Program-made: the position numbers and the translations under genes
Assembly (NCBI GenBank): GCA_017475605.1
Contig: JAFVFD010000005.1
Span: 30,001-62,000 of the forward strand
Direction of reading: 5' to 3'
From: Alphaproteobacteria bacterium
GTDB lineage: Bacteria > Pseudomonadota > Alphaproteobacteria > Rs-D84
Length of the DNA stretch: 32,000 nucleotides
The notes under the pieces: generated by a model
What the model was told of the DNA's origin: nothing
Databases searched by the model: none
Seen by the model: the letters and a program-made list of their open reading frames with translations, nothing else
Part shown: positions 5,968 through 32,000 of the stretch, one piece after another
How positions within the stretch are numbered: position 1 is the stretch's first letter
Layout: the number at the start of each line of letters is the position of its first letter

Positions 5968-7182
5968 TTATTTACTTACACAATTGGCAAAACTTTGCGC
6001 AACCAAAGATTTTTCTTCACTGCTCATTTGGCGCACCGGAATTATATAACACCGCGCACTGTCCCGCATAATAAACACCTTGGTTCCGCGAATATACGCG
6101 CGTTGCATATCGTCAATTTGCGCCGATGTCAAAAATGCATTTTGTGTCATTGACGAATTAGACATAGCCGCATTTACCACCTGATACGCGGTATTGTAAT
6201 CCCACATTTCCGAAAGTGTCGTTACATCCATCCATACCGACCATGTTTCATAAGGGTTTTCCTGAATTGCTTCTTTCCCAGGGAAAACGACACCCGTTAC
6301 CAATGCCGCCGCCGTTTGTAATGCGGTCGGTTCAGACGACGAAGACGAACCATGCGCAACCGTATTCAATTGCATATTGTCCCCGCAGGCCAGGTTCATA
6401 CGATTTGTATATCCAGCCAAAACCGCATCAACCGCATTTTGCCAATCAGCCGCCTTTTTATTAAGGTCCAGACTTACAATCTTTTCAGCCCAGCCCCAAA
6501 TGTTCGCACCAACATTCCCGGCATTTGCGAATCGGGTTACCATTTCCGCACTGCCCCCCGGGACACCCGCACCACAATAGTCGGTTAATTGCGTGGTCAA
6601 CATACTAGATGTTTCATTACCATATGCCAACGCAACCGAATGGCACGACATCGCGGCTTCTAATTCCTGACGACGTTGCAAACACAAATCAGAATGTGAT
6701 TTAGACAACTGTTCCGCCATATTCGCCATGGACAGATACGACATAACTTCCTGTTGTACATAGGATGGGCACAGACGCGCCGCCGTATTCATACCATTGA
6801 TACTGTTTTTCATATTCACATTATATTGTGGCAACAACACAGAAGTATCTTTCTGTAAACACAGCAACGCATAATTATACAATTCACTTTCCGTCGCATA
6901 TTGGCACCGACCACTGCGTTGTCCCGGCACAACCGCAACATCGCCACAATAGTCCGCCAGGCAACTATAAATCTTGGCCCGGCAAGCCGAATCCACGTCC
7001 GGTTGTGTTACCATATAATAGGTATTGCGTTGATTGGTTTTATATGCGTTGGCCAATGCCTGATTACCGCGCAGGCCAGTTGTAACCGATGTTGTACCAT
7101 AAATACCACGTGCCGAATCCGCCGCCCAAGAACTTGATGCGACCAAACCCAACACCGCAAATATTGCCAGCATATTTTTCAT
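5968..7182 (-). CDS. Secreted cysteine-rich protein of unknown function (12 Cys in the mature part)
   Basis: Sec signal MKNMLAIFAVLGLVASSSWA|A. I recognise no family. Carries a C-x6-C-x4-CG module (CRAKIYSCLADYCGD) that also occurs in the 824-aa and partial Cys-rich proteins at 28499-32000. It has its own terminator. Confidence 0.75.
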   Translation of the reverse strand: MKNMLAIFAVLGLVASSSWAADSARGIYGTTSVTTGLRGNQALANAYKTNQRNTYYMVTQPDVDSACRAKIYSCLADYCGDVAVVPGQRSGRCQYATESELYNYALLCLQKDTSVLLPQYNVNMKNSINGMNTAARLCPSYVQQEVMSYLSMANMAEQLSKSHSDLCLQRRQELEAAMSCHSVALAYGNETSSMLTTQLTDYCGAGVPGGSAEMVTRFANAGNVGANIWGWAEKIVSLDLNKKAADWQNAVDAVLAGYTNRMNLACGDNMQLNTVAHGSSSSSEPTALQTAAALVTGVVFPGKEAIQENPYETWSVWMDVTTLSEMWDYNTAYQVVNAAMSNSSMTQNAFLTSAQIDDMQRAYIRGTKVFIMRDSARCYIIPVRQMSSEEKSLVAQSFANCVSK

Positions 7183-20499: not shown

Positions 20500-21489
20500 C
20501 TAGGTTTGACAGTTACCTATGCTGTAACATACTGATCTAATTGACGGTATCATGGCTGAATACCCCCAACCTTTTACAGCACCACCATCTTCTGTACTGC
20601 ATGCACCGGTGTCGGTTGATACGGAACATGTGCCGTATGTTGTTGTAACCTTTACCCTTGTTGTTCCGTTGCCGGTTGTCGTACTGGACCTTCTACATGT
20701 ACTTCCCGAAACATACCATCCTGTTGGACATGTGGTTACTTTGTAATATGCCTGCATAAGACAGCAAAAACCACCAGATGACGTGCGCGAATTTTCACAC
20801 GCTGGCTCGGTTTGATATAAACGCAAAGTTGCATCCGTACTGCTATAAACATTAGTCCATGCCACAGAAGTACCACCATTATATGTACATGTATCTTGGC
20901 TATATGCCTGACAGCCTTCGTTGTCCCCACCACCAACTGGCACAATCTCTCCGCCGACCATGCACGTGTTATATGAAAATGTGTTGGAACAGCCGGATAC
21001 GCTGTACGTTCGACTCGATGTTGAATAACCTGTGTCGCATGTGTTACATGTGCGAACACGATATCCCCCAAAACAATAATCTGTATAACTACTGCAATTC
21101 GAAACTGTATTTTGGACAGTGGTACTATTACTACAATTGGACGCACTGTAAGTCTTTGTGGTACATTGGGTGGAACCACTGCCACTTGATGTACAATAGC
21201 CCAAACTTACATTGCAACCAGTGTATGTATCAGTAAAAGTATATACTGCACGCGATCCTGAAGTACAGATGCCTGCATCCAACTGTGCACCACCACATGA
21301 TTGATAACACCTTGTACCATATCTGACTGTACCTGGATTAGAACAGGCACCAAGATTAATCTCTAGACGTTCCTCATCGCCGGCCAGACAAGCCCCAACA
21401 GTACACACCAACGCATTTGCGGTATTGGTAAAAAATGGTGCCACAGCCAGTATACACCCAAACCACAATACCCGTAATATCCGATTCAT
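20500..21489 (-). CDS. Secreted Cys/Ser/Thr/Gly/Tyr-rich protein (about 27 Cys in about 300 mature residues)
   Basis: Signal MNRILRVLWFGCILAVAPFFTNTANA|L. RBS AAAGGGGGAAAA. Low-complexity Cys-rich sequence with CxxC (CNTCDTGY) and CPTGWY motifs. I recognise no family. Confidence 0.7.
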   Translation of the reverse strand: MNRILRVLWFGCILAVAPFFTNTANALVCTVGACLAGDEERLEINLGACSNPGTVRYGTRCYQSCGGAQLDAGICTSGSRAVYTFTDTYTGCNVSLGYCTSSGSGSTQCTTKTYSASNCSNSTTVQNTVSNCSSYTDYCFGGYRVRTCNTCDTGYSTSSRTYSVSGCSNTFSYNTCMVGGEIVPVGGGDNEGCQAYSQDTCTYNGGTSVAWTNVYSSTDATLRLYQTEPACENSRTSSGGFCCLMQAYYKVTTCPTGWYVSGSTCRRSSTTTGNGTTRVKVTTTYGTCSVSTDTGACSTEDGGAVKGWGYSAMIPSIRSVCYSIGNCQT

Positions 21490-22050: not shown

Positions 22051-22875
22051 TTATTTGTCCAAAGCGTTCATGATTTGATCGTATGGAATCGCGCCTGGGA
22101 ACGCCTGGTCGCCAATGACCAAGAATGGTGTTCCGTTGATTTCAAAACGTTGTGCCAATTCACGAACATTTGACAATTCACGTGTAACGACTTCGTTTTT
22201 CATATCGGCTTTCAACTTGTCTGTATCCAAGCCTGCTTCACGAGCCATCTTCATGATGTTTGCTTCGACTTTTTCACCAATTTTAGACTGATCTTTCAAG
22301 TCGTCTTGGCTATAGAAATCACGTGTCATCATCATGTCAACAAAGACTGCTGCTTTGTCTGCGTCCTGCATTTTTGCAGCGATAGCAGCCTTGGCTGGAC
22401 CATCGGACAATGCGCCATGGATAGAGAAGTTTTTGATAACTACGCGTACATCGTCGCGTTCATCCAAAACACGTGCCAATTCGCCATGTACACGACGGCA
22501 GAACGGGCAGCTAAAGTCTGTCCAAACAAAGATTGTCTTTTTGGCATCACGATTACCCAAAATTGGGGCATCTGCCATCATCTTTGCTGCGTTTGAACGA
22601 ACATACGAACGGACTGCTTTGTTCTTTTCAGCCTGCTGTTGTTCCTGCATCGCGGAAATCATTGTCTGCACAATGCCAGGATTAACATGTGTCAGATAGT
22701 ACGGAATGTACATGCGTGTAACCGCACCCGCAACCAAGATAATCGCAACCAGTTTGATTACCTTTTTACATAAAATAACGCCCATCGTTGGTTTCTTTTC
22801 GTCGCCCTTGACCAGCATGCCGCCGAACAAGAACAATGCGATACCCAATAACAAGGCTAAGATTGTCCAAGTCAT
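22051..22875 (-). CDS. Membrane-anchored DsbA-family thiol:disulfide oxidoreductase
   Basis: Strong RBS AAGGAGAA. Two N-terminal hydrophobic helices, then a thioredoxin fold with a CPFC active site (FVWTDFSCPFCRRVH) and the DsbA-type C-terminal part (INGTPFLVIG). Confidence 0.85.
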   Translation of the reverse strand: MTWTILALLLGIALFLFGGMLVKGDEKKPTMGVILCKKVIKLVAIILVAGAVTRMYIPYYLTHVNPGIVQTMISAMQEQQQAEKNKAVRSYVRSNAAKMMADAPILGNRDAKKTIFVWTDFSCPFCRRVHGELARVLDERDDVRVVIKNFSIHGALSDGPAKAAIAAKMQDADKAAVFVDMMMTRDFYSQDDLKDQSKIGEKVEANIMKMAREAGLDTDKLKADMKNEVVTRELSNVRELAQRFEINGTPFLVIGDQAFPGAIPYDQIMNALDK

Positions 22876-25190: not shown

Positions 25191-25958
25191 ATGATAAGTC
25201 CGTTTCACAGAAATCTTAACCGTATGACCTTGTTTTTAGCCCTTATTATTGCGGGCATCATACTGTTTTTTGACCCGTTTATGCAGATTGCTACGGCGAA
25301 CATTATACTTAATGGCATCATTATTGGGACGGCACTTTTCGGAATTGGGCTTTGTTTTGTCCAGATGTTCCGCCTGTTGCCTGAACATCGGTGGTTATAT
25401 GGTTATATTGATGGGGAACGCGGTGCGGCCCTGCCCCCGCGCGTGTTGCGTCCGGCGGCATTGATGTTACATGCGCGCCCGGTGCGTATATCTGCGGCGG
25501 CATTGAACAGCATGTTGGATATGATTTTATTGCGGTTTGAAGATGACCGCAATTCCGTACGCTATGTAACAAACACTTTGATATTCTTGGGGTTACTTGG
25601 GACATTTTGGGGGTTGCTTATGACGGTTGGCGGTTTTGCCGAATTGATTGGCGGCCTGGATATGACCGATGAAACCGTATTGGAATCGATGCAGATTGGC
25701 CTGGCACGACCATTGGCGGGTATGGCAACCGCATTTACAAGTTCTATTCTTGGCCTGGGGGGAAGTTTGATTGTCGGCTTTCTGGGGTTGCAGATTCAAT
25801 CGGTTCAGAACGCGATGTTCCATGAAATCGAAGAATATTTTGCGGCACACACGCACACCGCAACGCCGGATGTTACCATGGCACAGATTGGGTCTGCGGC
25901 ACGCGCATTAAACAAAACCGTTCAACACTTTGACCGAACGGTCGCAAAACTGGGATAA
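25191..25958 (+). CDS. MotA/TolQ/ExbB-family proton-channel protein
   Basis: Four hydrophobic helices. The C-terminal pair carries the family signature (LIFLGLLGTFWGLL and LAGMATAFTSSILGLGGSLIVGF). Confidence 0.8.
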   Translation: MISPFHRNLNRMTLFLALIIAGIILFFDPFMQIATANIILNGIIIGTALFGIGLCFVQMFRLLPEHRWLYGYIDGERGAALPPRVLRPAALMLHARPVRISAAALNSMLDMILLRFEDDRNSVRYVTNTLIFLGLLGTFWGLLMTVGGFAELIGGLDMTDETVLESMQIGLARPLAGMATAFTSSILGLGGSLIVGFLGLQIQSVQNAMFHEIEEYFAAHTHTATPDVTMAQIGSAARALNKTVQHFDRTVAKLG

Positions 25959-25993: not shown

Positions 25994-27064
25994 ATGCTTA
26001 ATATTCGTTATCGTGAAAGTACAAATACATGGCCTGGGTTCGTAGATTTATTTTCGAACCTGGTTATCATATTGATATTCTTGCTTATTATGTTCGTGTT
26101 TTTGTGGACCACAACAAGTGTGTTTAACAAACAAAGTGGTGCAAAGACCGTTGCCGAATTACGCGCCGAAACCGCGGACCAGGCACAAACAATTGAACAA
26201 ATGCGCGCTGACGAGCAAGAGGCCCGCCGCCTGCTGATTATGGCACGAAACGAATTGGAAACATTGGACAACGACCGCGCCGAACTCATCAATGAATTGA
26301 ATGAAACTGATTTAAGTTTGGCCGACCTGGCAACCGCATACGAAGAAAAAATTGCGGCCCTTACCCAGCAATTAAACCAGGCCAACGTTGACAAGGAACA
26401 GATAGCACAACTGGAACAGGAACGCGCAAAATTACACGATGAAATGTCCGCCCAACGCGCCGAATTGGCCGATCAAATTACAAAATTACAGGCGGCATTA
26501 GACGCGGCCGAAGAAAAGGCGCGCACCCAGGAAGTACAATATGTTGAAATGTCGAACCGGCTTAACAAGGCCCTGGCGGACAAGGTTGCCGAATTAAACC
26601 AAATGTCGCAATATCAATCGGCATTTTACCGCGCAATCAAAGATGCACTGGGCGACCGTACAACCGTTCGTGCCGATGGCGACCGCTTTATTGTATCAAG
26701 TGATATTTTATTCGCCAGTGGTTCATACAATTTGTCGCCGGACGGAAAACGCCAATTACAATTGATTGCCAATGTAATCAAAGATTTCGAAAACAAGATT
26801 CCATCAGATGTCGATTGGATTATCCGCGTTGACGGCCATACCGATAAAAAACCGGTTGTCCCCGGCACGCGTGCATACCGAAACAATATGCAACTGTCGT
26901 TCCTGCGGGCAACGGCGGTGGCAAATGAATTGGCGAAAAATGGGGTATCGCAACGCCGCCTTTTGCCAACGGGCTTTGGTGATTTACACCCGGTTGAATT
27001 GGGTAATTCCGCAGCCGACCTGCAAAAGAACCGCCGTATCGAATTACAATTAACAAATCGGTAA
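25994..27064 (+). CDS. MotB/OmpA-family peptidoglycan-binding protein with long central coiled coil
   Basis: N-terminal TM with a MotB-type conserved Asp (WPGFVDLFSNLVIILIF). About 190 aa of heptad-like Q/E/A/L-rich sequence. C-terminal OmpA-like domain (RVDGHTD...NMQLSFLRATAVANEL...NRRIELQL). Confidence 0.85.
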   Translation: MLNIRYRESTNTWPGFVDLFSNLVIILIFLLIMFVFLWTTTSVFNKQSGAKTVAELRAETADQAQTIEQMRADEQEARRLLIMARNELETLDNDRAELINELNETDLSLADLATAYEEKIAALTQQLNQANVDKEQIAQLEQERAKLHDEMSAQRAELADQITKLQAALDAAEEKARTQEVQYVEMSNRLNKALADKVAELNQMSQYQSAFYRAIKDALGDRTTVRADGDRFIVSSDILFASGSYNLSPDGKRQLQLIANVIKDFENKIPSDVDWIIRVDGHTDKKPVVPGTRAYRNNMQLSFLRATAVANELAKNGVSQRRLLPTGFGDLHPVELGNSAADLQKNRRIELQLTNR

Positions 27065-27476: not shown

Positions 27477-27554
27477 TTTTTCCCCCATTGTTTATTTTTT
27501 ATCCGCTGGTTATATTTTATCAAACAATGTTGGGTATTATCATAGGAACGAAAT

Positions 27555-27582
27555 AACAAAACGCACCAAACGGTGCGTTTTA
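27555..27582 (-). terminator. Terminator after mscS
   Basis: Hairpin ACGCACC-AAAC-GGTGCGT (27561-27578). On the minus strand it is followed by TTTTGTTATTT. Confidence 0.7.
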
Positions 27583-27589
27583 CTAATCA

Positions 27590-28489
27590 CTATTTCACAA
27601 TATGAACATCCATTTGTGGAAATGGAAAATGAACTTTCTTTTTCGGCAGCACCGCATATATCTGTTCATTTATATCTGCCATCACCGGATACATATCTGT
27701 ATAAGATGTCCAAAAACGCAAAACCAAATCAACCGAACTGTCCGACAGGCTTGATACGAACACAACTGGTTCCGGTGTTTTCAATATACGTTTGTCTTTT
27801 TTCACAATTTCCAATATCGCCCGGCGTGCGGCATCAACACTGTCGCCATAAGAAATACTTACCGTCAAATCGGTACGGCGATTTTTTCCATGTGATAAAT
27901 TAGTAATGATTCCATTTGCCAACGCGCCATTCGGTAAAAAGACAACCTGGTTATCAAATGTGTGTAATTCGGTTGTGAATATCATTATTTTTTTCACAAC
28001 ACCAACCTTGCCACTGGCGGTTTCAACGGTATCGCCAACCCGGAACGGTTTGAACATTAAAATGACAATACCACCCGCAAAGTTTTGTAATGTTCCCTGT
28101 AATGCCATACCAACCGCCAACGATGCCGCGCCCAACACCGCGACAATAGATGTCATTTGAACACCAACGGTTGTTAACACAATTATGAAAACAAATATTT
28201 TAAGCAGGATATTTATAAACGACCCCAGGAAAGATTGTAACGATGGATCAAAGTTACGAATTTCCATCATGCGCTTAAAAGACCTGGTAATTTTATTAGC
28301 CAACCAAATACCGCCACTTAAAATTAAAACCGCGACCAAAATTTTAAGACCAAAATCTACCGTTGCCTGAATAAGCGATTCCAGTGCCGCATCAATACCA
28401 GATTTTTCAATATTCAAAATTTCGGTTGGATTTTTTAATATTTCTTGTGTGGTTTCTAATACCGTTTGAACTTCCTGGTCCATTTTCAT
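27590..28489 (-). CDS. mscS: Small-conductance mechanosensitive channel (MscS family)
   Basis: Three TM helices plus the MscS beta domain (FKPFRVGDTVETASGKVGVVKKIMIFTTELHTFDNQVVFLPNG). The start lies 9 nt after the stop of the upstream Cys-rich gene, and AGGGG sits in that gap. Confidence 0.9.
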   Translation of the reverse strand: MKMDQEVQTVLETTQEILKNPTEILNIEKSGIDAALESLIQATVDFGLKILVAVLILSGGIWLANKITRSFKRMMEIRNFDPSLQSFLGSFINILLKIFVFIIVLTTVGVQMTSIVAVLGAASLAVGMALQGTLQNFAGGIVILMFKPFRVGDTVETASGKVGVVKKIMIFTTELHTFDNQVVFLPNGALANGIITNLSHGKNRRTDLTVSISYGDSVDAARRAILEIVKKDKRILKTPEPVVFVSSLSDSSVDLVLRFWTSYTDMYPVMADINEQIYAVLPKKKVHFPFPQMDVHIVK

Positions 28490-28498
28490 ACCCCTAAA

Positions 28499-30973
28499 CT
28501 ACATTGCTATGTCTTCACATTTTTCTTCAGAAGCAGTCGTTTCACAAGATGTATTTCTACTGTTGTGGAACCAAGATTTGCTGCCCGTTGTTTTACATGA
28601 TTCCGTAACAGTTTGTGTACAAATATGACAATTTCTTGTTTCACGCGAAAATACAGCTGTAACAGTTTTGGACAAACCACCACCGTTAAATGTTGTCCCC
28701 CCAAGGTATCCATCATTATTGAATGTAACCCCGTTACTTCTGATGACCCCGGCACCACCACGGGTAAGGTCTTCTGTTGAAAGGCCAGAACCGACATCAT
28801 AACTTATTGCGTATGGCGTATTCAATTCTGCTGTCGGTGTTGTAATTCCACCCCCAGCACCACCATTTTCGGCAATTTTTTGGCACATATATTGCGCCAA
28901 ATCTGCGGACGCATTTTTAGTTGCATCTGAAATAGCGGTATTTAATTTGTTGTTATAATTATCCTGGGCTTTACGTAATGCTGCAATTGCTATTTGCATT
29001 TTCACTTGGTTCAACAAGTTTGGAAAACGTGCCTCTGTTCTTTCGTTTTTACCTGTTATTTGTTTTAAATTGCGCCCACTAATACAATATTGAATTTCTG
29101 GGTCTTGTTCAATAATAGAAATTGTTCTATTAATAGTCCCGGCAATATTGTTTAATTCTTCTTCTATGTTAAATATAATTTCTTCGGCGTTATCAACACC
29201 TGTATTATTTTCACGAACCTTGGCTAAATAATCTTGAACACCTATTTCACCAGGTTTCAGTTTCGTTTCGCCGTCAATTGTTTTCCCAGATGCATCACCA
29301 ATCTTCAAAGAGCCAAAAGAAATCATACCCGTTACACGATATGTGGTCCCATCTTTCTGACTGCGCAAAGACCCTGTACCGATGGTGTCATCACTGGCAA
29401 ATTTATTACAATCTATTGTACTGCCGCACAATTCTAACATTTTGTTATCAACTAAATTTTGACAATTGTTCAATGCGGCATTATCAATATTCAGATATAA
29501 CCCCATAAGCATAGAATCTAAATCATCCATAGAAAACTCTGGATTATTAGCCTTGCACACAACTAATTTATCCAATGGGCAAATATCATGAATATAACTG
29601 TAATCCATACCGATACAGTTGGAAAAATCTTTACCGCAACGCGTATCATCGGTAAAACATTCTTTGACCTCTGTTGTACATGCGTCCACACGCATTGCCG
29701 CCAATTTATCCTTAACATAACCCCAAATAAGCGGTTCCATACGTTCGCATGGGTCTATTTCAACCTTACAAAAACTGCGCGCCATATCGGGCCGCGACAA
29801 GCACGCATCCATTGTCGCGACACCCTTGCCGGCGATATCATCACGACAAGCCGTCTGAATACACTTTGAAATTGTCCCTAAACAAGATTGACGAAATCTA
29901 GATTCAGCATTTGATTCCGCAACACGAATTGTTGGGGCCGCTTCGCGCAGAAATGCGGGCCAAACCATATCGCGTACGGCAACACATTTATTCAAAACAT
30001 TTTCACAAATATTACGTTTCGCATTCAACATTTCCATAGTTGATGCCGTAATATCAAAAACATCAACTGTTTGAACTTTGGTTTTAGCCGTACTTGTTGC
30101 TGCATTATTCTGCATATTTTCCGATGCTATTGTTGAAACACAATTCACCCAATCCGCCCCACAGGCATCGTCCGTCTGCATACATTTGCGGAATTCAACC
30201 ATACATTGCCCCAGGTCGTATTTATTTGCTTCTTCGAAACTTTCCTTTAACGCGGCCCGTACATCCGCATTGGCATTAGCCAGTTCCGCGTTCGCCTTAG
30301 CCTTGCTCTGTGCAATACTGTTTTCAAATGCCTTGCAATCAGATGTAATTTGACGTGCGTATAATTGGTGCAAGAAATTTAAATCTTTATTACAAGATAC
30401 CGGCATTTGTTCGCGGCACAATTCGTCGGCGGCATTAAACAGGGCATTGCCAGTCTTGTCGGCAATATTTTCCACAGAATCTTCAAACAAATCTTCATCG
30501 AAATTAAATGCTGAATTATCCCACAGGGCCAACAAATTTGCGCGTTTCTGTTCCTTGGTTTCTTCTAAATTAGAATATACAACATTGCCATTATTATCAT
30601 ATTGGCGCGTTCCATTAAAGATAATATCTGCCTGGGCACCGGCCTTGACACGTTCAACCTCAACCGTACGGATACGTTCCGCCTCGGACAAAGTATCCTG
30701 AATAGATGCCAGTTGCGATTCAAGATTTGCATTCAAATCACTACACGCACAACTGCCCCCGTTGACATTATCCATTATACAAAACTGATCCATACAACCA
30801 TAATAGGCATCATAACAACTTTGGTCATATACCCCAGTTGCCGCGACACGCGCCCGAACCGTTGTACCAGTTTGAATTGCCGATTGTTTTTTTGTAACCG
30901 CCGCATTAGCACCGACACCCACCACAACAGATGCCGCCAGTACACATAACGATAAAGTTTTTTTTGATATCAT
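28499..30973 (-). CDS. Large secreted cysteine-rich protein, 824 aa with 36 Cys in the mature part, unknown function
   Basis: I moved the start to MISKKTLSLCVLAASVVVGVGANA|A (RBS GGAGAGG); the longer ORF would overlap the upstream gene. It has many C-x6-C pairs and two copies of a C-x6-C-x6-C-x6-C unit. The C-terminus RNCHIC...CEDIAM is shared with the upstream paralog. Confidence 0.8.
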   Translation of the reverse strand: MISKKTLSLCVLAASVVVGVGANAAVTKKQSAIQTGTTVRARVAATGVYDQSCYDAYYGCMDQFCIMDNVNGGSCACSDLNANLESQLASIQDTLSEAERIRTVEVERVKAGAQADIIFNGTRQYDNNGNVVYSNLEETKEQKRANLLALWDNSAFNFDEDLFEDSVENIADKTGNALFNAADELCREQMPVSCNKDLNFLHQLYARQITSDCKAFENSIAQSKAKANAELANANADVRAALKESFEEANKYDLGQCMVEFRKCMQTDDACGADWVNCVSTIASENMQNNAATSTAKTKVQTVDVFDITASTMEMLNAKRNICENVLNKCVAVRDMVWPAFLREAAPTIRVAESNAESRFRQSCLGTISKCIQTACRDDIAGKGVATMDACLSRPDMARSFCKVEIDPCERMEPLIWGYVKDKLAAMRVDACTTEVKECFTDDTRCGKDFSNCIGMDYSYIHDICPLDKLVVCKANNPEFSMDDLDSMLMGLYLNIDNAALNNCQNLVDNKMLELCGSTIDCNKFASDDTIGTGSLRSQKDGTTYRVTGMISFGSLKIGDASGKTIDGETKLKPGEIGVQDYLAKVRENNTGVDNAEEIIFNIEEELNNIAGTINRTISIIEQDPEIQYCISGRNLKQITGKNERTEARFPNLLNQVKMQIAIAALRKAQDNYNNKLNTAISDATKNASADLAQYMCQKIAENGGAGGGITTPTAELNTPYAISYDVGSGLSTEDLTRGGAGVIRSNGVTFNNDGYLGGTTFNGGGLSKTVTAVFSRETRNCHICTQTVTESCKTTGSKSWFHNSRNTSCETTASEEKCEDIAM

Positions 30974-31005
30974 GCCCCTCTCCCCCGATTTGACGCACGA
31001 TGCGA

Positions 31006-32000
31006 TTACATATTTATATCTTCGCAAGATTCAATTTCTTGGCAGAATTCTTCTTTACCCCCCGAAGCAAAACCCATAAGTCCACCACCAATCAAACCTA
31101 CGACACCACCGATTGCCGTTCCCCAGCCAGGTGTTACCATTGTGCCCGCCGAAGCACCCGCCGCCGAGGCACCCGCACCAGCCTTTAACGCAGATGTCCA
31201 TTTGCTTTCGCCACCTGTTTCACAAACCTGCTGCATACGGCAAACATGGCAATTACGTAATTCTGGTTCAAAATTTACCGAACGAATATAACTGTAATTT
31301 TTGCTACCTTGTTTTGGTGTTTCAACCGCATATGTGTTATAGCAATTCTGACGCGCTTTTTCGACATCTTGTTCGCGGGACAATTCCGCAATACGCGATT
31401 CCAACGCACGCAAGGCACGATTTTCCGCACTTATATTTGCAATCAACTTTGCACTGTTAAACACACTTGTACCCAAACTGGCACGTCCCGCTGGTTTTTG
31501 ACTATCTTGACACGCAGCAACGGTTATATCTTTTTCAAATTGAGCAAAGAAAGCATCTACTGCGTTTGATGCATTTGCGCGAACTTCCGACCGCAATTCC
31601 GCCATTCCTTCTTCCGAATCAGGCAGAGTCATTAACGAAGCGACCGTATCATCATTTGGCAAACAAGACATATCTGTACCACACACACGTCCCAATTGAT
31701 CACCAAAATAATTCAAACACCCCTGCATCAAACGATAATCCATCTGCATCAAAGTTGCCTGTAATATGATATCGAACTGTGTTTCATTTTTACAGGATGG
31801 GAACATAGATTGTGGACATAATGCCGCGATTTCGTTTGATTTTTTGCCAAGACATTCCGGCGCAGTAAAGTTCTGACCACATTTATCGCGTAAACATTTA
31901 TCTACATCGTTTTGACAAAATTGAGTCCGCAAATAACCCAACTTATCATTAACCGCGGAACGAATACCCGGCACTAATTCTTCGCATTCTGTGATAACCG
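31006..32000 (-). CDS. Cysteine-rich protein, 5'-partial, paralog of the 824-aa protein, with C-terminal glycine-zipper segment
   Basis: The frame stays open from the listed GTG (31974) to the window edge (...ITECEEL-VPGIRS...), so the gene starts outside the window. Carries CQNDVDKCLRDKCG, RNCHVC...., GWGTAIGGVVGLIGGGLMGFASGG and the terminal CEDINM. Confidence 0.75.
   Translation of the reverse strand, partial: VITECEELVPGIRSAVNDKLGYLRTQFCQNDVDKCLRDKCGQNFTAPECLGKKSNEIAALCPQSMFPSCKNETQFDIILQATLMQMDYRLMQGCLNYFGDQLGRVCGTDMSCLPNDDTVASLMTLPDSEEGMAELRSEVRANASNAVDAFFAQFEKDITVAACQDSQKPAGRASLGTSVFNSAKLIANISAENRALRALESRIAELSREQDVEKARQNCYNTYAVETPKQGSKNYSYIRSVNFEPELRNCHVCRMQQVCETGGESKWTSALKAGAGASAAGASAGTMVTPGWGTAIGGVVGLIGGGLMGFASGGKEEFCQEIESCEDINM

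Follow-up and report, generated by a model that had tools for sequence, protein, structure and literature searches.

A six-cysteine unit, probably a disulfide-braced helical hairpin, in a secreted protein superfamily of uncultured gut Alphaproteobacteria

The window analysed here is a stretch of 32,000 nucleotides (nt) from an Alphaproteobacteria bacterium of the Rs-D84 lineage (NCBI GenBank assembly GCA_017475605.1, contig JAFVFD010000005.1, positions 30,001 to 62,000 of the forward strand), and the subject of this work is a minus-strand gene within it that encodes a cysteine-rich protein of 824 residues, here called protein A, the 'A-type' paralog of its family. With a probability of roughly 70%, protein A is a Sec-exported member of a lineage-specific superfamily whose N-terminal ~480 residues are made of about four helical hairpins with six cysteines each. 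In the proposed hairpin the first two cysteines, C1 and C2, would lie one heptad apart on the same face of a helix, a short loop would be closed by C3 and C4 (CG-x-D-aromatic-x-x-C), and the returning segment would bear C5 and C6, 7-8 residues apart. DsbA-dependent oxidation in the periplasm would then lock each hairpin in a three-rung ladder of C1-C6, C2-C5 and C3-C4. Two 22-residue motifs, described as an internal repeat in an initial annotation made from the sequence of the window, would represent C1-C4 of the units called II and IV and be the products of an ancient duplication. The hairpins, together with long helices, would form a rigid, protease-resistant extracytoplasmic rod.

The two motifs lie at residues 257-278 (copy 1, CMVEFRKCMQTDDACGADWVNC, nt 30140-30205) and 432-453 (copy 2, CTTEVKECFTDDTRCGKDFSNC, nt 29615-29680), and both have the cysteine spacing 7-7-7, i.e., C-x6-C-x6-C-x6-C, exactly as first annotated. 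The consensus proposed for them at that time stands in part. Nine of the 22 positions are identical in register (the four cysteines and E, D, G, D and N) and R/K and W/F are conservative, but the 'DD' pair is shifted by one between the copies, which read C-x3-DD-x-C (copy 1) and C-x2-DD-x2-C (copy 2). Both motifs are kept in the 126 aligned members, whose identity goes down to 27%. In particular, the family consensus of copy 1 is C-[VTM]-[VIL]-E-[FY]-[KR]-x-C-M-x5-C-G-x-D-[FWY]-[ST]-[GNK]-C-[VAI], that of copy 2 is C-T-x-E-[VI]-[KR]-x-C-[LF]-x5-C-G-x-D-[YF]-[ST]-[NGQ]-C-[IV], and the pattern common to both is C-x2-E-[VIF]-[KR]-x-C-[ML]-x5-C-G-x-D-[FWY]-[ST]-[GN]-C-[VI]. The shorter C-x6-C(-x4-C) stretches that had also been pointed out, at residues 53/60/65, 323/330, 364/371/376 and 402/409, are all present. 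Gaps equal to 7 account for 10 of the 35 intervals between consecutive cysteines of the mature protein, against 1.2 expected by random placement (a count of 10 was never attained in 200,000 random placements; Poisson P ~6e-7).

The common origin of the two copies emerges from profile comparisons of different depth. Copy 1 receives 25.4 bits from a hidden Markov model (HMM) built only on copy 2, while the HMM of copy 1 scores copy 2 at 25.9 bits, and each of these scores is reached by 1 in 20,000 null sequences in which the cysteine frame is fixed and all other residues are drawn at random from the composition of the protein. Self-comparison by hhalign with close orthologs only (>=69% identity) returns a 23-column match (P 0.004), and the deep self-comparison aligns residues 432-519 with 257-379 over 86 columns (E 2.3e-6), with eight cysteines in register (432/257, 439/264, 446/271, 453/278, 465/323, 473/330, 504/364 and 516/376). 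At the DNA level the two motif copies share only 29 of 66 positions (44%), which makes the duplication ancient and excludes a recent DNA repeat. Thus, the claim of an internal duplication is upheld by the reciprocal HMM scores and the 86-column self-alignment; sequence comparison confirms it as real and ancient and indicates that it covers at least residues 257-379 and 432-519.

The true unit is probably a stretch of six cysteines, ~42-75 residues long, in which C1-x6-C2 is followed by the loop CG-x-D-aromatic-x2-C (C3...C4) and then by C5-x6/7-C6 (Table 1). The evidence comes from the cysteines that diverged members have lost. Among 226 such members, C376 and C391 are both absent in 28, C439 and C465 in 11, C364 and C409 in 4-5, and C264 and C323 in one (P0220), and the loss of a single partner was seen in none of them for 376/391, 439/465 and 264/323. 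In P0218, C364 alone is flagged as lost in the HMM alignment, but both C364 and C409 are lost in the MAFFT alignment; C697 was left out of the analysis since its region aligns unreliably. The residues that replace the lost pairs are small or hydrophobic (e.g., A/F, A/I, G/L, L/L), and paralog C is independently devoid of 264 and 323 (D, Y in their place) and of 376 and 391 (S, L). Loss in pairs points to disulfide partners and places the partner of C2 of each 22-residue motif outside the motif. The four-cysteine stretch is thus not the self-contained module it had been taken for, as C264 is lost only with C323 and C439 only with C465, and the stretches 323-330 and 402-409, listed at first as shorter units, are not modules in their own right but form the second arms of unit II and unit III, respectively.

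The positions of the partners follow a simple rule, as their sums are constant within a unit (257+330 = 264+323 = 587; 364+409 = 371+402 = 773; 432+473 = 905 and 439+465 = 904), which indicates antiparallel arms. On these grounds, the cysteines of protein A are likely to be disulfide-bonded, in nested pairs C1-C6, C2-C5 and C3-C4 in each unit. Co-loss supports C2-C5 in units II and IV and C1-C6 and C3-C4 in unit III, with no single unit offering it for all three pairs; C1-C6 and C3-C4 of units II and IV would form by analogy with unit III.

By pattern, protein A contains about four six-cysteine units. The copy-1 motif makes up the first 22 residues of unit II, which has an A-specific insert of 44 residues between C4 and C5 and occurs in compact form in paralog B; the copy-2 motif likewise opens unit IV. 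Unit III is supported by its cysteine pattern and by co-loss. Unit I, whose existence and pairing are suggested by the pattern, includes a large insert (residues 78-185), carries the family signature GCMDQFC and is predicted to contain the helices 51-65 and 175-189/192-249, while its cysteines are kept in paralogs A-D. The initial view of the protein as an array therefore holds for topology, but not for sequence likeness, which is found only between units II and IV.

Table 1. Features of the protein A locus and its surroundings, with positions in the window
Feature	Position (nt)	Strand	Basis
824-residue Cys-rich secreted protein, 'A-type' paralog (protein A)	28499..30973	-	ORF, ATG, Shine-Dalgarno
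Putative Sec-type signal peptide, residues 1-24	30902..30973	-	read from sequence, without lipobox
Putative unit I, C53-x6-C60-x4-C65 ... C75/C77 ... C186-x7-C194	30392..30817	-	Cys pattern and helices
Unit II, residues 257-330 (C257, C264; C271, C278; C323, C330)	29984..30205	-	consensus, co-loss, helices
Unit III, residues 364-409 (C364, C371; C376, C391; C402, C409)	29747..29884	-	co-loss
Unit IV, compact, residues 432-473 (C432, C439; C446, C453; C465, C473)	29555..29680	-	co-loss, alignments
C-terminal beta-rich Cys region, residues 763-824 (RNCHIC and ...C-x8-CEDIAM tail)	28502..28687	-	three long strands, AlphaFold2
Paralog B, 3' part, cut by the window end	31006..32000	-	BLASTP to A residues 406-533, E 3e-14
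DsbA-like periplasmic thiol:disulfide oxidoreductase, outside the locus proper	22051..22875	-	Pfam DSBA 4e-20; context

The arrangement of the cysteines was also considered in predicted structures. The AlphaFold2 model of protein A, obtained from an 81-sequence alignment, has a mean predicted local distance difference test (pLDDT) score of 80.4 and a predicted template modelling (pTM) score of 0.48, with pLDDT ~90 over units II-IV. Helices predominate between residues 50 and 700; the model ends in a small beta-rich region that contains cysteines, and it has variable inserts of low confidence at 120-170 and 290-300. In unit II of the model, C257 and C264 belong to helix 254-265, C271 to the next loop, C278 to the start of helix 276-288 and C323 to helix 310-327, with C330 immediately before helix 331-377. 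In unit IV, C432 and C439 are in helix 416-440, C446 and C453 in a loop, and C465 and C473 in or beside short helices. A separate AlphaFold2 model of the 290-residue paralog D, with pLDDT >90 in the C-terminal half, which holds its unit (residues 150-191), has C150 and C157 in helix 147-158, C164 and C171 in a loop, C184 in helix 174-187 and C191 at the next helix. This matching helix/loop layout of the cysteines makes the predicted fold consistent across paralog families. The initial idea that i/i+7 cysteines share one face of a helix and staple it to an antiparallel partner agrees with these models, in which C1 and C2 are on one helix, and with the paired losses. The second C-x6-C is mostly loop in both models.

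The gene for protein A was delimited within the minus-strand open reading frame (ORF) 28499-31027 by an in-frame ATG at 30973, with the Shine-Dalgarno sequence GGGGGAGAGGGG 5 nt 5' of it. The first 24 residues (MISKKTLSLCVLAASVVVGVGANA/AV) read as a Sec-type signal peptide, and a similar hydrophobic leader is found at the N-terminus of every examined A-family member. A lipoprotein was considered and rejected, as L-S-L-C at residues 7-10 is no lipobox and C10 occurs in only 4 of 29 orthologs. The mature part has 36 cysteines, all of them (36/36) invariant across 29 orthologs, and ~31 are kept in the 116-126 members of the diverged family, at 27-50% identity. The protein of the window is the top match of its own family; its identity to 125 aligned members is 27-93%, and all cysteine columns are kept. 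It has the signal peptide, the GCMDxFC...C-x-C signature, the ~31 conserved cysteines and the two C-x6-C-x6-CGxD[FWY]xxC motifs of the A-type family. Compared with the related locus L001, the identity of protein A is 71% over its full length, to be set beside 78% for L9, 71% for DsbA, 66% for an OmpA-like protein and 60% for RecO. By this measure protein A is as conserved as housekeeping proteins and under strong purifying selection. At the other end of the protein, the beta-rich region holds a conserved CxxC motif, C-H-I-C (residues 782-786, 28616-28630 on the minus strand; C-H-V-C in B), which is directly preceded by an invariant R-N. Its candidate roles, judged from the sequence, are a structural disulfide, a redox or cross-linking site, or a metal site. 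The C-terminal strands were ruled out as membrane beta-strands, being polar.

Protein A is one member of a superfamily that also includes B, C, the 'mini' protein D of 290 residues and the two-unit protein E, all with signal peptides and clustered in Enterousia. C, transcribed divergently, and B followed by A form a cluster in 69 of 83 related loci; in the window, B is seen in part upstream of A and the position of C falls outside. B has ~724 residues at full length in related genomes (the full gene is found in L001, 7767-9941), and its stop is separated from gene A by 32 nt, a gap that suggests a B-A operon. The second motif of B is C-x6-C-x4-C-x8-C. A and B have in common the RNCHxC motif (BLASTP E 2e-4) and, as read from the sequences, the terminal C-EDIxM tail. 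B also contains, at 31040-31170 on the minus strand, an insert of ~40 hydrophobic, Gly/Ala-rich residues resembling a glycine zipper (…GWGTAIGGVVGLIGGGLMGFASGG…), which directly precedes the C-x5-CEDINM C-terminal tail shared with A. The insert gives only sub-threshold Pfam matches (Gly-zipper_YMGG and Bacteriocin_IIc) and, from its composition, could be a segment for membrane association.

The smaller paralogs carry the six-cysteine unit as well. D (~290 residues) is a miniature of the N-terminal core of A, has 20 cysteines of which 18 are invariant and two are lost in 1 of 120 sequences, and forms a separate set of 638 clusters; the alignment of its unit with unit IV of A brings six of six cysteines into register (E 1.8e-5). 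E (500-590 residues) has two compact tandem six-cysteine units and an acidic tail. In both B and E the C2-C3 spacing becomes x4 and C5-C6 is kept. The four-cysteine pattern was sought among the 932 other ORFs of these loci and occurs only in D and E. D and E belong to a D-E-F operon of secreted cysteine-rich proteins (L051, 9834-14380 on the minus strand; similar in L016 and L043; L083, 18141-21014), which in some genomes is near the C, B-A cluster. Protein F (~720 residues) combines C-x-C repeats with an OmpA domain at its C-terminus (PF00691, 34.4 bits).

The distribution of the superfamily is restricted. In a HMMER scan of 1.84 billion representatives, 824 clusters (defined at 50% identity) reached E <=1e-3 and 261 of these E <=1e-30, and relatives are encoded in 450 GTDB species-level genomes. 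The hosts form a widespread, uncultured group of gut Alphaproteobacteria, Candidatus Enterousia and its relatives, represented by metagenome-assembled genomes (MAGs) labelled 'Rickettsiales' or 'Alphaproteobacteria bacterium', among them one circular MAG of 958,618 bp. The superfamily has so far been seen only in such reduced-genome bacteria. A 65%-identical A-type gene deposited as 'Bacteroides fragilis isolate ... cleanbin' (L048, CAVGNU010000011.1) almost certainly lies on a mis-binned Enterousia-like contig. In distant relatives, one or more A-type genes are placed directly 3' of the rpoA-rplQ ribosomal-protein operon on the same strand (L083, 9291-12287; L084, 7163-18048; L085, 10001-12874), and the copy number varies from 1 to 4 by tandem expansion, with four tandem A-type paralogs in L084. 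These genes are followed by one for a conserved membrane protein of ~320 residues on the opposite strand and one for a cysteine-rich protein of 670-748 residues.

Searches of domain and structure libraries agree with the initial impression that the module is unlike any described domain, as neither Pfam, NCBIfam and PDB sequences nor the Foldseek PDB and BFVD sets contain it. Indeed, the Pfam/NCBIfam scan of protein A gave no family at E <=0.1, no consistent match in 25 family members and none meaningful in B, C, D and E. PHROGs and PADLOC returned nothing meaningful for these proteins, tblastn against phage genomes gave no match, and a profile search of PDB sequences found no relative (best E 0.79, a glucoamylase). 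With Foldseek, no match of E <=0.001 was obtained for the A model against PDB and BFVD or for the D model against PDB, the best PDB E-values being 1.4 (A) and 6.1 (D). Rows for a levivirus coat and a capping protein (E >1 and TM <0.4), a Csn2 match at 0.008 and a tape-measure family on the Gly-rich stretch of B were dismissed as noise, and F-type TraN, a cysteine-rich outer-membrane protein, was set aside for want of a Pfam TraN match. Family members bear no other name than 'hypothetical protein', and a search of the literature on Enterousia, Rs-D84 and CX6C motifs found no description of the A family.

The closest parallels are of design. CHCH (twin Cx9C) proteins and the twin Cx3C small Tim proteins of the mitochondrial intermembrane space are likewise helix-turn-helix structures with two cysteines per helix and nested disulfides, and CHCH proteins are oxidized by a compartment-specific machinery, as proposed for protein A. 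In protein A, however, the spacing is x6 instead of x9 or x3, a predicted third disulfide closes the tip loop, and the units are concatenated in an 824-residue bacterial secreted protein; with this spacing, no Pfam match at E <=0.1 and no structural match, it stands outside CHCH (PF06747). Saposin-like proteins (SapB_1/SapB_2) are all-helical with six cysteines in nested 1-6, 2-5 and 3-4 pairs. They have 4-5 helices in ~80 residues, a cysteine spacing other than that of protein A, and bind lipids; the likeness is one of predicted topology only, with neither a Pfam match nor, at the Foldseek E-values given above, a structural one. The Hcp (Sel1-like) proteins of Helicobacter are also secreted bacterial proteins built of repeated helix pairs braced by a disulfide, but they have one disulfide per 36-residue Sel1-like repeat (SLR) and differ from protein A in repeat length, motif and number of disulfides, and no Sel1 Pfam match was found for A, B, C, D and E. 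A possible functional analogy is offered by chlamydial OmcA/OmcB, which are conserved, abundant, cysteine-rich extracytoplasmic proteins that stiffen the envelope of a reduced-genome bacterium by disulfides. Neither of the two is related in sequence or fold to protein A, which the Chlam_OMP3 and Chlam_OMP6 Pfam profiles do not match, and OmcB is beta-rich; as a further difference, Enterousia retains peptidoglycan genes (PMC12306168; gene content of the window). By analogy, the unit of protein A may thus be described as the twin-CxnC (CHCH-like) hairpin design with an extra tip disulfide, in a module that has not been described before.

The window is chromosomal and encodes Pol I, AccA/D, RF, Obg, TyrRS, EF-Ts, S2, L9, RecO and a DsbA homologue. 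The synteny of the DsbA-like gene is kept in L001, and its product is a plausible oxidant for the cysteines of protein A. Only 9 nt separate the stop of gene A from the start of a gene for an MscS-type mechanosensitive channel (27590-28489, minus strand), past which there is a strong terminator-like hairpin (27554-27585), and B, A and MscS may hence share one transcript; the order of A then MscS is found in L016, L043 and L051, not in L001. A MotA/ExbB-like protein of 255 residues (25191-25958, plus strand) precedes a coiled-coil MotB/OmpA-like peptidoglycan-binding protein of the NCBIfam PRK09039 type (25994-27064, plus strand). The PADLOC ZorA and ZorB models match this pair (1e-11 and 9e-22), the MotA-like protein being far shorter than ZorA, and the pair adjoins the cysteine-rich locus in L001 too. 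Neither MscS nor BOF/YgiW nor the MotA/MotB-like pair is a consistent neighbour of A across related genomes. Elsewhere in the window, an unrelated cysteine-rich ORF that also looks secreted (20500-21489, minus strand; 329 residues, 28 cysteines, S/T/G-rich, with a hydrophobic leader) and an ORF of 404 residues with 12 cysteines (5968-7182, minus strand), located between genes for an AmiC-like amidase and RF, have no Pfam match.

Several observations weigh against the reading of protein A as a series of six-cysteine hairpins. In the model, the second arm of unit IV breaks up into short helices (458-464 and 471-474), with Pro466, instead of forming a regular helix. No significant sequence similarity links units I and III to units II and IV (hhalign E ~0.01). 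Ten cysteines (C257, C271, C278, C330, C371, C402, C432, C446, C453 and C473) are lost in no sequence, so that analogy and register are the grounds for C2-C5 of unit III and, in units II and IV, for C1-C6 and C3-C4. The co-loss counts are counts of sequences and not of independent events; in particular, all 28 A-type losses of 376/391 are A/F and probably reflect a single event. The gene neighbourhood is also not constant, since MscS is 3' of A only in some genomes and distant relatives are placed after rplQ.

Other explanations of the motifs have to be weighed against this background. That the 22-residue stretch might be a self-contained helical hairpin with two internal disulfides would suit the identical spacing and shared consensus of the copies, as well as the lack of indels in 117 of 126 (copy 1) and 108 of 126 members (copy 2). 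We regard it as improbable, since 264 is lost with 323 and 439 with 465 (11 sequences), which puts the partners outside the stretch, since copy-copy and family-family profile alignments run on through C5 and C6, and since B and E alter C2-C3 yet keep C5-C6; moreover, with the second C-x6-C mostly in loops of the A and D models, only C278 is helical in unit II. Chance or convergence in a cysteine-rich helical protein, with no duplication at all, could be argued from the close-ortholog self-match (23 columns, P 0.004) and the DNA identity of 44%, but it is made very improbable by the rate of ~1 in 20,000 in the null with a fixed cysteine frame, by the 86 columns and eight cysteines of the deep self-alignment (E 2.3e-6) and by the recurrence of the six-cysteine unit in families D and E. 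Hardly any weight can be given to the cysteines as ligands of a metal (Zn or Fe-S) in place of disulfides. Four regularly spaced cysteines could form a tetrahedral site, and there is a C-H-x-C near the C-terminus, but signal peptides in every member direct the proteins to the oxidising periplasm, a DsbA homologue is encoded nearby, and the cysteines are lost in pairs rather than fours, with hydrophobic or small residues, not His or Asp, in their place. No metal-binding Pfam family was matched, and the i/i+7 spacing on a helix is, to our knowledge, not a known metal-site geometry.

As regards function, the six-cysteine hairpin reading leads to a tentative proposal, which may hold but which we would not yet favour over its negation, that the paralogs form a rigid, protease-resistant scaffold of the envelope or surface, possibly hetero-oligomeric. 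Its anchoring could be provided by the Gly-zipper-like segment of B and, from the D-E-F operon nearby, by protein F with its OmpA domain. A different role for protein A, as an adhesin or effector that is displayed on the cell surface or released from it and acts on a partner or host cell, appears unlikely, albeit with arguments of its own. Some bacterial adhesin heads have a broadly similar build to the long, disulfide-braced helices predicted here. The variable copy number of A-type genes in distant relatives (1-4, by tandem expansion) and the variable, low-confidence inserts at 120-170 and 290-300 would also fit, as would the prediction that Rs-D84, the order that includes Enterousia, consists of obligate symbionts or parasites that take metabolites from other cells (PMC12306168). 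On the other side, housekeeping-level conservation over the full length is unusual for exposed adhesins and speaks against a diversifying antigen, no outer-membrane anchor, autotransporter barrel or dedicated secretion genes were found beside gene A, and the C-terminal strands are polar.

Whatever their exact role, these proteins represent a considerable investment, as A-F amount to five or six large, signal-peptide-bearing, cysteine-rich proteins and take up >1% of a ~0.9 Mb genome, with conservation comparable to that of ribosomal proteins. Several paralogs per ~900-gene genome, together with conservation at the housekeeping level, imply an important function. Enterousia and Rs-D84 have been described as reduced-genome, flagella-less, fermentative and probably partner-dependent gut bacteria with 'hypothetical membrane-bound proteins' (PMC12306168). 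It is conceivable, if doubtful, that the A-F paralogs build a lineage-specific, disulfide-braced envelope or attachment structure of new architecture that underlies this partner dependence. Disulfide-stapled helical hairpins are a known design principle, as exemplified by CHCH, saposin-like and Sel1/Hcp proteins, whereas the six-cysteine unit and its superfamily are absent from every domain and structure library searched. The definition of the unit provides the correct domain boundary for a profile HMM, a testable disulfide map and a marker family for Rs-D84. If the paralogs do build a lineage-specific envelope or attachment structure, the 'twin Cx6C plus tip loop' hairpin would constitute a bacterial structural domain of a new kind.

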